Positions 54,797 to 60,718 of a stretch of 64,000 nucleotides of DNA are shown here, piece by piece. The first letter of the stretch is position 1; each line of letters starts with the position of its first letter. The notes below the pieces were generated by a model, which had not been told where the DNA came from, ran no database searches, and was given only the letters and a program-made list of their open reading frames with translations. The DNA lies in the NCBI GenBank assembly GCA_963713615.1, contig CAVQMM010000001.1, positions 1,696,001 to 1,760,000 on the forward strand. Direction: 5' to 3'. This DNA is from an uncultured Chlamydiae bacterium. GTDB taxonomy: Bacteria; Chlamydiota; Chlamydiia; Chlamydiales; JAJFMA01. The translations under genes and the position numbers were made by a program.

Positions 54797-55365
54797 ATAT
54801 TTTACTCCTCCAATAAAGCATTCAACAATATATGATAAATCCAAATCGTTAACGTTATATTAAGACAAGATTCAGAATTTTTACGCAAAGGCAGAGAAAA
54901 GCTCACACGGATGGACACAGGACCACAGGAGGTAATTGCAAAATTATTGAAGCCCTTGAGAATCGGTTCTTGGGAAAAAAATGATCTTTTTTTTGTAAGA
55001 AAGCGATTCTAGGCAGCTCAGATGGCATGGCACTATCTGGTCTGGAGAGACAGGCTTTTACCTCTTTCACAGGCCCGACATCCCGCTAGAATTTTTCAAG
55101 ATTTTTCGTAGCTTTCAGGCGATTTTTCGATGCCAATTCCTTCGGTTTTGAAACTTTTAATTATTTTCTAATTTTGCTAAATTTATAGAGCCGAAGTAGA
55201 GTAGCCGTGCTCCTTTCAACGTAAGCGTCAATGCTAGCCATATTTCTATCATTGAGGTAATCGGCTAATGTGCCTTCCAAGTCAACAGTCAAAAGTGGGC
55301 GTGTATTAGGCCTATCTATCTTTCGAGACGCCTAAAAGCACTTTTTTTAAAAGTATGGAAGGCTT

Positions 55366-55680
55366 ATGAAAAAGAAATATACCTTAAAGCAACGCAAACA
55401 ATTGTTACATGAATGGCGAGTTAGTGGTAAAAGTGCTCCAAAATGGTGCCAAGAGATGGGAATTTCCTATACAACCCTTGCTCATTGGCGACAAACACTG
55501 CCAGTCCGCAAACAAAAAAAATGCCAACGCAAATCTCCTTCCTTTGTAGAACTGGTCGAATCGCCAAAACCTGCGCAAAACTACATTGAGGTTGCCTGCG
55601 CTGACGTCGTTATTCGACTATTCCCGGACTTTGATGATCAGGTCTTTCTACGCTGCCTTCAAACATTAAAACGATTATAA
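55366..55680 (+). CDS. tnpA: Second IS66 TnpA-like HTH protein, convergent with tnpC
   Basis: EWRVSGKSAPKWCQEMGISYTTLAHWR, SFVEL, IRLFPDFD. Confidence 0.85.
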   Translation: MKKKYTLKQRKQLLHEWRVSGKSAPKWCQEMGISYTTLAHWRQTLPVRKQKKCQRKSPSFVELVESPKPAQNYIEVACADVVIRLFPDFDDQVFLRCLQTLKRL

Positions 55681-55712
55681 TGAATGCCCCTTGGCTGGCC
55701 CTGAATGTTTTT

Positions 55713-57293
55713 TTAGTGGGATACAGCCGATTTGAAATTCTCAAAAGAATTGCCAGAAGGGTCCTGCTGTGATTTAGCCCATTGATCTGGTAGTAGTTCG
55801 TAAAGTTTTTGTGAGCTGTGACTCATTAGTCTACGCATGACATCTTCAAGATAGTCTCGAGGGTTTATTCCCAGATTCCGGCAGGTTTGAACTAAAGACA
55901 GTATTACCGCTGCGGCTTCGCCCCCTTCTTCATTGCCAATAAATAGCCAATTCTTGCGGCCAATTGCCAATGGACGAACTGCACGTTCGGCTACATTGTT
56001 ATCTAGGCGTGCGTATGGATGGTTTAAGTAGTTTTTTAGATGAGGAATCAGACCTAAAAAATACCCTAGAGCTTCTCGAAATTTGGATTTAGGCAGGACT
56101 TTTCCTTCGGATAGACGTTTTTTGATGGCGTTGATTAGCTCGTCTATAATCGGCCCCTCTTTCAGCTGCCGTATGCGTAATCGCTCTTCTTCAGAGCGTG
56201 CCCAAGCAATTCTTTCTAGCATAAAGAGGTAGCGAATCTTTCGTAAAACCCATTTGCGAAATGGGGGATCTCCAGTTTCCGCCTCTATGAATTTTCTGCG
56301 AATATGCGACCAGCAGGGACATAAAATGATTTTCTTCTTATTTGCCAGATCAATATAAGCCCCATATTTATCTGAATGTACCACTCCGGTATACCCTGCA
56401 AGTATTTCCGAGGCATTTTCATGTTTGCGGTTCGTCCGAAAATTGTAGACTCTATAGGCTGGGTTCGTATGTTTGCCCCCAACCAACACCCACATGTAAG
56501 CTTGATGGACTTTGCCCTTTCCCGGAGAAAGCATATCCACAGGACTTTCATCGATAAACACATTTCCGCTTTGCAAAATTTGCTTTGTTAGTTCCTCATG
56601 AAGAGGTTTTAATGCCTGTCCACAGCGTACAACCCAATTACAAAGGACTTGCCTGCTGATCCCAATTCCTTCCCTAGCAAGAATTTCTGAAATTCTATAG
56701 AGCGGTAGATGGTCGGCAAATTTCTTTGTTAAAATGTCTGCTAAAAAGCTCTCATCTGCTTGACAACGCGTAAGCAAACCTTCTGGAAGGGGAGCAGTTC
56801 GGATTCCACCTTCACTGTCTTGAGGAAGAGCATATTTTGGCCGGATGATTTCTTTGATAAAATAGCTTCCTGGCTTATGAGCCAGTTTTTGACTGACTTC
56901 TTCACCGATCTTGATCAGTTGCTGACCAGTCTCAGGACAGATCTTTTCAGATTCCGGTAGATCGATTATTTGACGTTCTACGGGTAGGTCTGGGGGCAGT
57001 GTGATTTTGTCTTTACCAGTACGCTTGAGTTGTCGGCGCTCATGAGCAGGAATGGTTGTTTTCTTTTCCGGTTTCACATTCTTAGGTGGTTCAAAACCGG
57101 GTAAGAAGGGTTGACTTTCGTTGACTGGGTCTACAAATTTTTCGGCACGTTGTCCAAAAACCTGCCTTTTTAGCCAATCCAATTGCTCCTTGAGATAAGT
57201 CAGCTCATTCTGTAGCTGCTCGATTATGCTGTCCTTACGAGCGCTTTCGGCAATCAGATCTTGGAGAGTACGTGTTGTAGGTGCCATATGCAC
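55713..57293 (-). CDS. tnpC: IS66 DDE transposase
   Basis: Leucine zipper, KFADHLPLYR, IDESP, HSDKY, CWSHIRRKF, LDNNVAERAVRPLAIGRKNWLF. Confidence 0.97.
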   Translation of the reverse strand: MHMAPTTRTLQDLIAESARKDSIIEQLQNELTYLKEQLDWLKRQVFGQRAEKFVDPVNESQPFLPGFEPPKNVKPEKKTTIPAHERRQLKRTGKDKITLPPDLPVERQIIDLPESEKICPETGQQLIKIGEEVSQKLAHKPGSYFIKEIIRPKYALPQDSEGGIRTAPLPEGLLTRCQADESFLADILTKKFADHLPLYRISEILAREGIGISRQVLCNWVVRCGQALKPLHEELTKQILQSGNVFIDESPVDMLSPGKGKVHQAYMWVLVGGKHTNPAYRVYNFRTNRKHENASEILAGYTGVVHSDKYGAYIDLANKKKIILCPCWSHIRRKFIEAETGDPPFRKWVLRKIRYLFMLERIAWARSEEERLRIRQLKEGPIIDELINAIKKRLSEGKVLPKSKFREALGYFLGLIPHLKNYLNHPYARLDNNVAERAVRPLAIGRKNWLFIGNEEGGEAAAVILSLVQTCRNLGINPRDYLEDVMRRLMSHSSQKLYELLPDQWAKSQQDPSGNSFENFKSAVSH

Positions 57294-57341
57294 ATCATTG
57301 TACTCAAAATATGAATTTATGTGAATGCAAAAAATGCATTT

Positions 57342-57680
57342 TCACACTATCTTGAAACGCTTTTGCAGTCGTTTCGGAACGACGCCTTCCAACATCATCA
57401 AAAAGGTCCTTCGATCAACTAAGGCCTCTTCCAATTTTCTCTTAGGGAAGCTTCCCCGCTCAAGACGTTTATACCAGATGGCAAAACCATCACTATCCCA
57501 ATAGAGTATTTTAATGCGATCTCTTCGACGGTTAAGAAAGGAAAAGAAGGCGCCACTAATCAGCTCATCACTGCCGAAAGCTCTCTCAACTAAGGCGCAG
57601 AGGCCTTCAAAACCCTTTCTTAAATCGGTTGTCTCACGAAAAATGAAGATTCGCGCATTCCCTGGATAAGTCAGCATCAA
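57342..57680 (-). CDS. tnpB: IS66 accessory protein TnpB
   Basis: TDLRKGFEGL, NRRRDRIKILYWDSDGF..WYKRLERG.F. Confidence 0.95.
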   Translation of the reverse strand: MMLTYPGNARIFIFRETTDLRKGFEGLCALVERAFGSDELISGAFFSFLNRRRDRIKILYWDSDGFAIWYKRLERGSFPKRKLEEALVDRRTFLMMLEGVVPKRLQKRFKIV

Positions 57681-57991
57681 GACTCCTCAAACAGTCTAAG
57701 ACACATCAGAAGAGCTGTGCGGTCATAATCTTTTGCCAGAGATAGTTTGCCTCCTCGAAAATTCATCTGCAGCCAATCGGGTATAGACCAGCCCTCTGGT
57801 AACTCCTTACATGGTTTATGCACAGGCTGATTTTTCGACTGATTGCTTAAAAATCGTTTTTTCCAATAATTGAACGTGGCATAAGAAAGACTTTGCTCTC
57901 GACACCAAGAGGAGGCGCTCTTTCCGCTTTTAGTCCACTCCTGGATTGTTTTTGCCCACTGCTCCGCACGAACTTTATCTCTCTCTTTCAT
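57677..57991 (-). CDS. tnpA: IS66 TnpA HTH protein
   Basis: W..SGKSASSWCREQSLSYATFNYWKK. ATG at 57991 with GGAGGT RBS; coupled to tnpB. Confidence 0.88.
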   Translation of the reverse strand: MKERDKVRAEQWAKTIQEWTKSGKSASSWCREQSLSYATFNYWKKRFLSNQSKNQPVHKPCKELPEGWSIPDWLQMNFRGGKLSLAKDYDRTALLMCLRLFEES

Positions 57992-58249
57992 CAGACCTAC
58001 CTCCAAAGTGTTACCTAACTTTGAAGGCACATTAGCTGATTACATCAACGACCGAAATATGGCTAGCATTGACGCTTACCTTTCAACTGCGAAGGGACAC
58101 GGTGAATTTACTTAGGAAGGTTGTATACAACTCCTATGGGGTTGCCGAAGCAGAGTAGCCGTGCTCCTTTTCTGCTCAGCTAACATCGCCGAATTTGCTG
58201 ACCTTGTTCATTCAGGCCAAACAGAACAAAGCCCGTTTGCTAAACTAAC

Positions 58250-59446
58250 TCAGTCTTCCTTCTGACGGTAATCCCTGTCATGTATGAGTATCGACCATAT
58301 TACTCTTATCATATGACGGGCAAATGCTCGTACTGCTTGGTTATGTTTTTTTCCCTCTGCTCTCTTCTTCTTGTAGTACTGTGCAGCCTCATCACATAGT
58401 TGTATATGTCGAGCAGCTCCGGTCATCATAGCTCCCTTTCCCCTCCAGTTAATATTTCGAGGCGATCGAGACCCCTCATATTGGCCAGAACTCTTGTTCA
58501 GAATTCCTATTCCCAAGTAGAGCGCTAGACTAGCTTCCGACTTAAACCGATCGATACTACCAATCTCTCCAGCGAGTTCTGCGGCACAAATGGAACCATA
58601 TCCAGGAATAGATTCAATCCGAGATGCTATCTTGGATTGTGGGATCAAACCCTCTATCAATACCTCCAACTGCGCTATTTCATCTAGCATCTCGAGTAGC
58701 CTTCTGACATCTCGTACTATTAATTTTCCTATCCACTCAACCTTTGAAGAGAACTTAGCCGTCTTTTGCCATTTCTGAATTTCCTCTGCATAAACCTCTC
58801 CAACGCCCTTGATTTGCAACAGGCTTCTTTTTTGCATTCGAAGCAACATGGTCATGTCTTCCTTCGAAGCAAGAAATCGTAGAAACCAAAGATTTGCTGG
58901 ATTTTTTGTAATAGACAGTAGACCGGGGCAAACAGCCTGTAGATCCCCTTGAAGTCGATTTATGATTCTTGTCTTTTCTTTTACCAACTCTCTACGACGC
59001 CTTGAAATATGTTTAAGTTGCTCGTTGCATACCGGTGGAGGCTCTACTTTCTGCAGAATATTTTTTGCCAACGGTAAGGTCTCTTGAACTTGAAACAAGC
59101 TAAAAATAGCCCAAGCGTCAATTGGATCTGTTTTGGCTGGACCAGGAAAAACTTCCTTAAATCTAGCCAATTTCATGTTGTTGACACTATACAAAGAATA
59201 TCCGTGATCAAGAGCATATCTATCGATGGGTCTAGCATAGCCATTAAACCCCTCCATAGCCATGACAACAGGCATGTTATAGGAAATTCTAAGCTTCTCA
59301 ATTTTCTCAAAAAACTGCTCAATGTCTTCAGAAGTGTGGTTTAGATAAAATCCATCGATGCGTTCTCCTGTGGACAAGCCTATGGCTACATAGTGTCGAA
59401 CGCTACCGATATCTAGACAAATACGAAGTTCGGACTGATTTTGCAT
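58250..59446 (-). CDS. IS110-family (DEDD) transposase/recombinase
   Basis: CLDIGS, AMEG, KTDPIDA, SIPGYG, GEIG.I.RF, SSG, GKKHNQAVRAFAR. Confidence 0.95.
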   Translation of the reverse strand: MQNQSELRICLDIGSVRHYVAIGLSTGERIDGFYLNHTSEDIEQFFEKIEKLRISYNMPVVMAMEGFNGYARPIDRYALDHGYSLYSVNNMKLARFKEVFPGPAKTDPIDAWAIFSLFQVQETLPLAKNILQKVEPPPVCNEQLKHISRRRRELVKEKTRIINRLQGDLQAVCPGLLSITKNPANLWFLRFLASKEDMTMLLRMQKRSLLQIKGVGEVYAEEIQKWQKTAKFSSKVEWIGKLIVRDVRRLLEMLDEIAQLEVLIEGLIPQSKIASRIESIPGYGSICAAELAGEIGSIDRFKSEASLALYLGIGILNKSSGQYEGSRSPRNINWRGKGAMMTGAARHIQLCDEAAQYYKKKRAEGKKHNQAVRAFARHMIRVIWSILIHDRDYRQKED

Positions 59447-59459
59447 GATAAATGCCCTG

Positions 59460-59633
59460 TTAAGTGTTTGTGAGCGTTAAATTTCACCCAAATTCCACTT
59501 CTACTTACAGAGCCACAATCAGAAGATTGGCACCATCCCGAACGGAATTATTGGATGATGCAAACGACGAAGGCGGCATATCGGGCCAGGCGAACAAACA
59601 TTCGCTAAGGGCACACGGCCACACCTTCGTCGG
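59460..59633 (-). ncRNA. Candidate IS110 bridge RNA (ends approximate)
   Basis: Hairpin 59565-59632 whose internal-loop segments UGCCCUU and GGCCCGA match the insertion target. Second hairpin at 59530-59561. TATCAT -10 at 59639-59644. Confidence 0.65.
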
Positions 59634-59709
59634 CCAAAATGATACCTTAGAGAAATGTTTTTTGTCTTTTCCTATTACCGTCGATAATCGTTTGCAAAAT
59701 CCTATGGTA

Positions 59710-60718
59710 GAAGGGTCGATATTGCAACAGGCCATGGAATCGCCCCATAGGCCTCAACCTAACAGGCCCTTTGGGCTTATGATTCAATGCTTTAAGGCTT
59801 TCTAGGCAACTCAAAAGGTTGGCTGGCGCAATTTCCTATGTGCGCAGTCATTCCATGACTGCGGACCAATCCGTTGCAATTGTGGAGACGTGCAAAACAA
59901 ACGTCCCATGTGATGCAAACAGAAGCTGTTTCAACCGTTCTCGCAGTCCTGGAATGACTGCGCCACAAAGGATTGCTTTTCATGAGGTTATGTGGGTGAA
60001 GGCCCATCCGCAGTCATGGAATGACTGCGCCACATAGGAAGCCTCGTCACTTTCGGATATTGGCGACGCAGCCGGTTGGGGCTCTAAAATGCTACGCGCA
60101 GATTGATGATTGTTAGGCTTAGGTTGAGGCCTATGGGGCATCGCCCTGGTGTATGCCAAGAAGTGATTTCGCAGTCTGAAAGACTGCCACAAAACGCCGG
60201 TTTACAACTCCGTCTATGCAAGCGCTTTATGGCAGCCCTACAGGCTGCGAAATCCATTCCTGGCATACACCAGGGCGATGCCCCATAGGCCTCAACCTAA
60301 GCCTAACAATCGTATCTCGGCGCGCAGCGCTTTGGAGTGCGGTCGCTTGCGACCGCTTTGGGTTCCTTGCGACGGTCGTGTGCAACGGCATTACTATAAT
60401 TCCCTAAGGGTAAAATAGTTAGTACATGCAGCCTTCGACGAATCCATACAATGCCGTTTAGCATTGCCGTCCCAAGGAACGAAAAGCGGTCGCAAGCGAC
60501 CGCACTCCAAAGCGCTGCGCGCCGAGATACGATTGTGAAGTCCTAAGTCATTGAGATATAAGCTCAAAAGACCTGTTAGGTTGAGGCCTATGGGGCGATG
60601 CCCTGGCCTGTTGCAATATCGCCCCTTCGGGCCTGGAAAGGGATGGCCTCTCTCTCTCTTTACCGACACTCGAGTTTCAGAAATTGACTTCGGGAAACCG
60701 GACTTCTGCAATTACCTC
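59710..60718. repeat. BIME-like mosaic of palindromic families E, C, E, A, E, D
   Basis: E 59710-59778; C units at 59835-59863, 59942-59967 and 60007-60038; E doublet 60110-60309; A 60306-60538; E 60560-60634; D 60702-60718. Confidence 0.85.

Follow-up and report, generated by a model that had tools for sequence, protein, structure and literature searches.

We investigated a 64,000-nucleotide (nt) stretch of the genome of an uncultured Chlamydiae bacterium (assembly GCA_963713615.1, contig CAVQMM010000001.1, positions 1,696,001 to 1,760,000), hereafter the window, which carries on its minus strand an insertion sequence (IS) of the IS110 family. The open reading frame (ORF) at 59446-58250 matches PF01548 and PF02371 and scores above the cut-off of NF033542. 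The element is thus a jumping gene of a known RNA-guided family, and as the mechanism of this family is already published, its presence is not in itself a surprise. Nine copies were found in the genome, of which eight are whole, with 100% protein identity, and the ninth is split by another IS. The intact element measures 1,766 bp (263 + 1194 + 307 nt and one core); one such copy lies at G000:C1 2060029-2061796. Gene-less mini-copies were not found in the genome, where both element ends occur only in the nine copies.

The protein presents the N-terminal DEDD RuvC-like domain and the C-terminal conserved-serine domain of the IS110 family, and the element uses a specific target site. The guide RNA region lies upstream of the gene, in a long left end, as in the IS110 group and not the IS1111 group. 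A single-sequence search of the PDB with the recombinase missed IS621; a profile of 44 relatives matched chains of ISCro4 and of IS621, with E values of 6e-13 and 1e-12. Residues D12, E65, D107, D110 and S320 align with D11, E60, D102, D105 and S241 of IS621, given as catalytic in the passages of PMC11208158. The window gave no match in Rfam at gathering thresholds.

The junctions are the same throughout the nine copies: CCCT, TC, TACCAT on the left and GGGATG, TC, GGGC on the right. Since both junctions share TC in every copy, the core consists of two bases; the same TC is found in the empty site, and there is no other duplication. All the insertions occupy one position of one repeat, at the site CCCT-TC-GGGC. 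The original prediction, made from the window alone, had placed the left flank, ending ATATCGACCCTTC, at 59710 and given the non-coding left end as 263 nt, which is the distance from the core to the ATG in the nine copies. It had put the right end at a CGGGCTT motif at 58235, with one base shared by the junctions and a palindrome rebuilt when the flanks are joined. The motif does occur there and resembles the repeat, and the window hides the true end behind an IS66 element, which accounts for the false one: in this copy the right end breaks off at 58079, is taken up again at 55220 and reaches its last base at 55079. Beyond the last codon, 174 nt are shared without change by all nine copies, to 58079, so that CGGGCTT lies inside the element. 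Every copy runs on past it to one common end motif, after which come TC and then GGGC; the relatives end at this motif too, and a peat contig from a separate study (X9 contig 24) shows an identical right junction in another copy of the repeat. The other copies thus differ from the proposed right end, an outcome that the original prediction had itself named as refuting it, and we give practically no credence to a geometry with an end at 58236, one shared base and a rebuilt palindrome. The palindrome and the circle junction proposed with it are artefacts, the AAGCCCAAAGGG arm being present in the left flank of this copy only, and the one-base oddity is an artefact as well. A nested IS can fake an "unusual" end, which calls for caution.

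The target repeat, CCCTTCGGGC, has 281 intact copies in the genome. On the chromosome it falls into 148 clusters, and the copies often form inverted pairs whose spacing recurs. Of the six Y1 transposase genes, one has 13 copies within 6 kb, all on its downstream side. The Y1 protein encoded beside the repeat array has a Y---Q-HH signature and passes the IS200 cut-off and falls short of that of RAYT. The copy number, the inverted pairs and the array beside a Y1 gene suggest a repeat similar to the repetitive extragenic palindromic (REP) sequences, the link between Y1 and the repeat being one of adjacency. One of three congeners gave nine matches to the repeat and no match to the recombinase, which indicates that the repeat likely exists independently of the IS110 element.

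The array at G000:C1 3243391-3248900 consists of a Y1 gene followed by target repeats in alternating orientation, with one IS110 copy inserted; its spacers of 150-400 nt themselves contain repeated units. Tandem arrays of repeat units with periods near 455-474 nt are found at G000:C1 476864-478757, 1173565-1175458, 2273784-2277381 and 2600969-2603195. Beside the window copy, positions 59780-60700 form a mosaic of the target repeat and other high-copy palindromic repeats (GTAG-, GTGG- and GGAG-led), and the 2.7-kb region that includes them gives about 1,900 BLAST hits genome-wide.

The non-coding left end folds better than chance (z -2.93, none of 200 shuffles as good) and is predicted to hold a target-binding loop followed by a donor-binding loop, whose parts are listed in Table 1. 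The stem, the TGCCCTT (59613-59607) and GGCCCGA (59587-59581) segments and the GCGAA/TTCGC inner hairpin of the original prediction were found again, as was TATCAT at 59644-59639, 6 nt before the stem. Its proposal of a bridge RNA in the left end with a target loop matching a REP-like site is supported, both target guides having been placed correctly and the right one covarying; the IS621-type layout is kept, and donor guides, which it could not identify, are present. The right target guide pairs 7/7 with the site in eight of the nine copies. The left target guide makes 5 matches and 1 wobble with the main repeat class and 7 matches with the class beside a Y1 transposase gene, where the remaining copy sits. 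The left donor guide pairs 7/7 with donor positions 1-7 and the right donor guide 5/5 with positions 8-12.

Table 1 Predicted and observed features of the IS110 element and its target in the window (positions counted from the first letter of the window)
Feature	Position	Strand	Remarks
Intact, unoccupied target repeat	60616..60634	+	orientation opposite to the occupied site; as in the original prediction
Left target half, positions 1-7, CGACCCT	59712..59718	-	ends CCCT in 9/9 copies
TC core, left junction	59710..59711	-	9/9 copies
Non-coding left end, 263 nt (core to ATG)	59447..59709	-	identical in 9 copies
Left-end start TACCAT	in 59447..59709	-	right donor half and predicted -10 of the circle-junction promoter
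Predicted internal sigma70-type promoter	59639..59668	-	AAGACA, 18 nt, TATCAT; position conserved in the family
Predicted target-binding loop	59565..59632	-	outer stem CGACGAAGG 59632-59624 / CCTTCGTCG 59573-59565
Parts of the target loop		-	left guide 59614-59606, inner hairpin, right guide 59587-59581, handshake bases UA 59580-59579
Predicted donor-binding loop	59484..59558	-	left guide CGGGAUGGU 59540-59532, inner hairpin
Parts of the donor loop		-	right guide GUAGA 59504-59500, handshake bases AG 59499-59498
IS110 recombinase, 398 aa	58250..59446	-	
First part of the 307-nt right end	58080..58249	-	contains CGGGCTT and one copy of a 27-nt direct repeat
IS66 inserted in the right end, 2859 bp	55221..58079	-	GTAAGCG ends
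Remaining right end	55079..55220	-	predicted -35 TTGAAA 55099-55094; left donor half CGGGATG 55085-55079
TC core, right junction	55077..55078	-	
Right target half, positions 10-14, GGGCC	55072..55076	-	GGGCC in 8/9 copies, GGGCT in 1

Covariation was followed in related loci (L-numbers), of which 160 were fetched; together with one own copy, 141 of 161 were parsed, the other 20 being on short contigs or missing a motif, and rows without one end were left out of single tallies. L113 and L145, whose right junctions read TTA instead of TTC, were excluded from the flank test. In this test, at 80% identity (51 clusters), the right target guide paired with positions 10-14 of its own flank in 187 of 255 comparisons, against 128.4 ± 6.2 in shuffles, none of 20,000 of which was as high. 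At 70% clustering the values were 79/110 and 53.0, and the excess persisted when clustering was set at 90% or 70% and when this element was left out. The pair of donor position 12 with its right donor guide was C:G in 112 and T:A in 14 loci (59 and 4 clusters), with none of the 126 discordant, and relative L122 shows a matched change of donor guide and element end. The consensus fold presents two-sided changes in 18 of 40 pairs in an alignment of 47 sequences, hand-picked from 63 representatives. In L031, L044, L133, L156, L157, L181 and L183 the donor loop could not be parsed at the expected spacing, the linker being apparently longer.

Taken together, the element very probably moves by IS621-type bridge recombination, with a predicted RNA of ~150 nt (about 59632-59484) and TC cores in a REP-like repeat. 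In the proposed steps, the first loop of the RNA would pair with the repeat and the second with the element's ends once joined. The recombinase would cut beside the TC cores, and the handshake bases would pull the exchange forward, AG of the donor loop with C6-T7 of the target and UA of the target loop with T6-G7 of the donor. Excision would give a circle joining TTGAAA, 17 nt and TACCAT as a second promoter. The right end was considered as a possible second RNA; it folds (no control), but its length, 307 nt here and 31-64 nt in most relatives, is not conserved. A possible subterminal inverted repeat has 8/10 matches here and mostly 6-7/10 in 50 elements, without control and with at least one misparsed end.

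Several points weigh against this reading. The guide registers of this element were picked with the target in view, and the guide-flank shuffles ignore relatedness, for which clustering is a partial correction. Free folding partly closes both loops (-58.5 kcal/mol, against -46.5 with the guides forced open), so that the open loops rest on covariation and not on energy. Neither left guide spans the full core: the one for the target is mismatched at core base 9, and the left donor guide, which is unchanged, must bulge a G or lose the pair at base 8. Left guides offer no contrast for covariation, nearly all relatives carrying a G-run there; the left target guide appears to be supported by the single switch of this element instead. 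Four RNA runs gave only short contigs of depth 2-13, scattered over the left end, the gene, the right end and the flanks, and no circle joint was found in the contigs of eight runs (four RNA, four DNA), contigs being unable to show its absence. RNA contigs of two studies start 8 nt apart (L014 1348 and 1356), at points ~35 nt into the predicted RNA; upstream of them the DNA runs continue and RNA cover is absent. At depth 2-4 these starts are too weak to count.

The start of the RNA was approached through the left ends of the relatives. In 56 of 62 clusters a TAnnnT box precedes the target stem by 4-11 nt, compared with 10.1 in shuffles (maximum 22) and 5 and 2 in slid windows, and 32 of these 56 have a -35-like hexamer 16-18 nt away (5.9 in shuffles). 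Where the leader is long, the box keeps to the stem in 14 of 16 elements. The 45 nt ahead of the stem present no conserved fold (median z 0.07, 5/63 below -2), compared with a median of -4.19 for the target loop; a 5' stem-loop ahead of the target loop was not detected in these 45 nt, longer leaders not having been folded in full. As the box is conserved and stays with the stem, and the leader is without a conserved fold, TATCAT is probably a genuine promoter element and the target loop is the likely start of the RNA, as the original prediction had suspected. Such an internal promoter would yield both the RNA and the recombinase message from the integrated element, with no 5' stem-loop. At the circle junction, the spacer of the predicted promoter is 17 nt in 113 of 114 loci.

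The target and donor ends of this element set it apart from its relatives. The usual target of the relatives is GGGG-TC-AGGTC, GGGG being found in 78 of 129 left flanks, with a left guide GGGGUC, and they end with GGGATG and one base before TC, which is T in 107 of 114. Empty sites were sought in five host genomes, where the pattern lacking the extra T gave 37 hits (control 7) and the pattern having it 1 (control 1), which assigns the extra T to the donor; on these counts, a one-base core was rejected for the family. The usual target, as GGGG-TC-AGGTCT, is itself repeated in several hosts, with 6-18 copies in four of the five genomes tested (L027-L186 flanks). In a quick tree the element nests with the GGGG-type relatives (supports 98 and 100), so that its target and donor state is likely derived. 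Its closest relative is in a Chlamydiales genome of the same order. No close copy was found in 60 related genomes and one in 400 of the phylum, identical to L027; intermediates of the retargeting were thus not found among the genomes searched. The IS110s met in viral contigs and plasmids were all distant, near 26-28% identity.

Unlike the relatives, and alone in this, the element has a changed left guide, two changed handshake bases and one changed donor base, with one more A after TTGAAA that leaves the spacer at 17. The first handshake base is A in the target loop of 140/141 loci and C in the donor loop of 121/122. Facing target position 7, the donor loop forms C:G in 120 loci, A:T in one (this element) and C:T in one (121/122 paired); facing donor position 7, the target loop forms A:T in 107, A:A in three and U:G in one (this element), i.e. 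108/111 paired, one by wobble. Only this element combines T at target 7 with A in the donor loop, and G at donor 7 with U in the target loop. According to PMC11208158 (section 11), handshake bases that pair with their cognate DNA lock the complex and block the exchange, and handshake covariation is known. A target with T at position 7 would jam the ancestral set-up (handshake A in the target loop, T at donor 7). The changes would be coupled because T at both position 7s would let the ancestral bases pair with cognate DNA: the element would have lost the donor T, changed both handshake bases and gained an A that kept the spacer at 17.

We tentatively propose that the handshake rule forced this element to rewrite one of its ends, of which its sequence is a natural record, and that it belongs to a widespread TC-core clade having a compact ~150-nt bridge RNA, no 5' stem-loop, and its own internal promoter in addition to the junction promoter. 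It is also conceivable, if doubtful, that the donor T was lost by a neutral slip (e.g. a shared TTC at the first insertion) and that the handshake bases changed by independent drift. The branch to this element is long (0.66), along which unrelated changes can accumulate, and the retargeting is one event, for which reason there is no statistic for coupling. Four loci break the handshake rule: L107, with T at target 7, the ancestral handshake bases and a right end that was not found, and three in which A at donor 7 faces A. When the donor changed, the left donor guide stayed as it was, for which a possible bulge is the one explanation at hand, and the tree is a quick version whose outgroup, three viral IS110s, sits on a very long branch. 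These points go against the forced rewriting; against the drift stand the near fixation of the changed positions elsewhere, the restoration of a predicted pair by each change, and the spacer that stays 17.

Doubt also attaches to whether pairing suffices for target choice and to which promoter makes the RNA. The DNA hairpin of the repeat could be needed as well, as reported for ISPpu10 in the passages of 10.64898/2026.03.19.712850: the occupied site falls within a predicted single-strand hairpin, and all nine insertions are in the repeat, yet about 100 of the 374 well-paired sites are not. These 374 are the TC-centred 14-mers, among 516,659, that reach 12/15 pairs; at least 270 of them are the repeat, so that pairing alone predicts most insertions there, and relatives often sit in unrelated left flanks. 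We regard an added role of the hairpin as unlikely, though with a real chance. As for the RNA, it might come only from the circle-junction promoter or from read-through, as in IS621, the internal box having another role or none. The junction promoter is nearer to consensus and its spacing is conserved, the internal -35 is weak here (4/6, spacer 18), two such sites were found where chance gives 0.6 per 400 nt, and integrated IS621 needs read-through (passages of PMC13626964). The conservation of the TAnnnT box and the -35-like hexamer across clusters, above shuffles, and the way the box tracks the stem make this rather improbable, and an internal promoter active in the integrated element is preferred.

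The IS66 in the right end is flanked by an 8-bp duplication, GTTGAAAG, at 58087-58080 and 55220-55213. As it lies 142 nt inside the right end and the donor half is intact, the window copy may remain able to excise. The IS66 insertion point is the start of the second copy of the 27-nt direct repeat (58170-58144 and 55220-55194, minus strand), whose copies lie 87 nt apart in intact right ends. A second small helix-turn-helix ORF of the IS66 orfA kind is found at 55366-55680 (plus strand), inside the far end of the IS66 and on the opposite strand, so that this IS66 carries an orfA-kind gene at both ends. In the genome there are three whole near-identical IS66 copies and several interrupted or partial ones; one IS66 copy adjoins a target repeat (C1 3354015). 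The element that splits the ninth IS110 copy (G000:C1 3548267-3551522) is 3.26 kb long and has seven genome copies, inverted ends of ~220 nt and two ORFs of 498 and 274 aa, a layout which we take to be IS21-like. Three other, unrelated IS110-type genes or remnants are present at G000:C1 2769885, 2145904 and 374916.

In all, the original observation was partly confirmed and its interpretation partly supported. The additions proposed here, a coupled retargeting and an internal promoter throughout the clade, are modest and can be tested. As a clean natural test case, the element yields four predictions on the handshake rule, each of a single base, and gives access to a clade in which more than 60 distinct recombinases (45-60% identical, from many phyla) go with legible guides, a TC core and a short RNA. 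Should the internal promoter prove real, the clade would start excision without the neighbouring transcription that IS621 needs, which would solve the start-up problem without read-through. A TC-core system would widen the sites open to bridge editing.

In the literature covered, which is incomplete and has ISfinder outside it, no account was found of this clade, nor of a retargeting to which a deletion at the donor end is coupled. Among the matches listed from the supplements of PMC11208160, no row is recognisable as this clade by four motifs, and the passages of 10.1101/2025.05.14.653916 and 10.64898/2026.08.14.744561 contain nothing on it. Natural redirection is known from ISMch6 (passages of PMC11187229), where, in ISEc21/ISMch6, guide bases changed with a changed target as here; three guide changes are reported there, and here the donor end, both handshake bases and the spacer also differ. 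The single Y1 gene with Y---Q-HH followed by a target-repeat array resembles subclass 1.2 of Quentin et al., with the difference that the passages of PMC6006769 assign no REPs to this subclass.

ISPpu9 and ISPpu10 of Pseudomonas putida (passages of PMC12288879 and 10.64898/2026.03.19.712850, the latter also giving a role to target hairpins) are IS110 elements in REP sequences, as here, with a native internal promoter for both bridge RNA and transposase, likewise putative here. In PMC12288879, ISPpu9 is described with a strong native promoter and no junction promoter, and in ISPpu10 the native promoter is weak and the one at the junction strong, so that an internal promoter has precedents. In contrast to ISPpu9, both promoter sites look conserved across the present clade, and the cores are AG and CT in ISPpu9 and ISPpu10 and TC here. 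The closest counterparts are IS621 and ISCro4/IS622 (passages of PMC11208160, PMC11208158, PMC13626964 and 10.1101/2025.05.14.653916; PDB 8wt6 and 9t56), with which the element shares the RuvC-DEDD and serine domains, a long non-coding left end with a target loop and then a donor loop, 14-nt sites around a 2-nt core, handshake bases at positions 6-7, a REP target and a predicted circle-junction promoter. It differs from them by a distant sequence, found only by the family profile, by its 398 aa, a core TC instead of CT, a 307-nt right end, left guides that span only part of the core, and a conserved internal promoter-like site. In IS621 there are a 5' stem-loop and a junction promoter (PMC11208160), and the integrated form depends on read-through (PMC13626964), whereas no conserved 5' stem-loop was detected here in the 45 nt before the stem. 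By its sequence features, the element works like IS621 in every testable respect except this 5' stem-loop.

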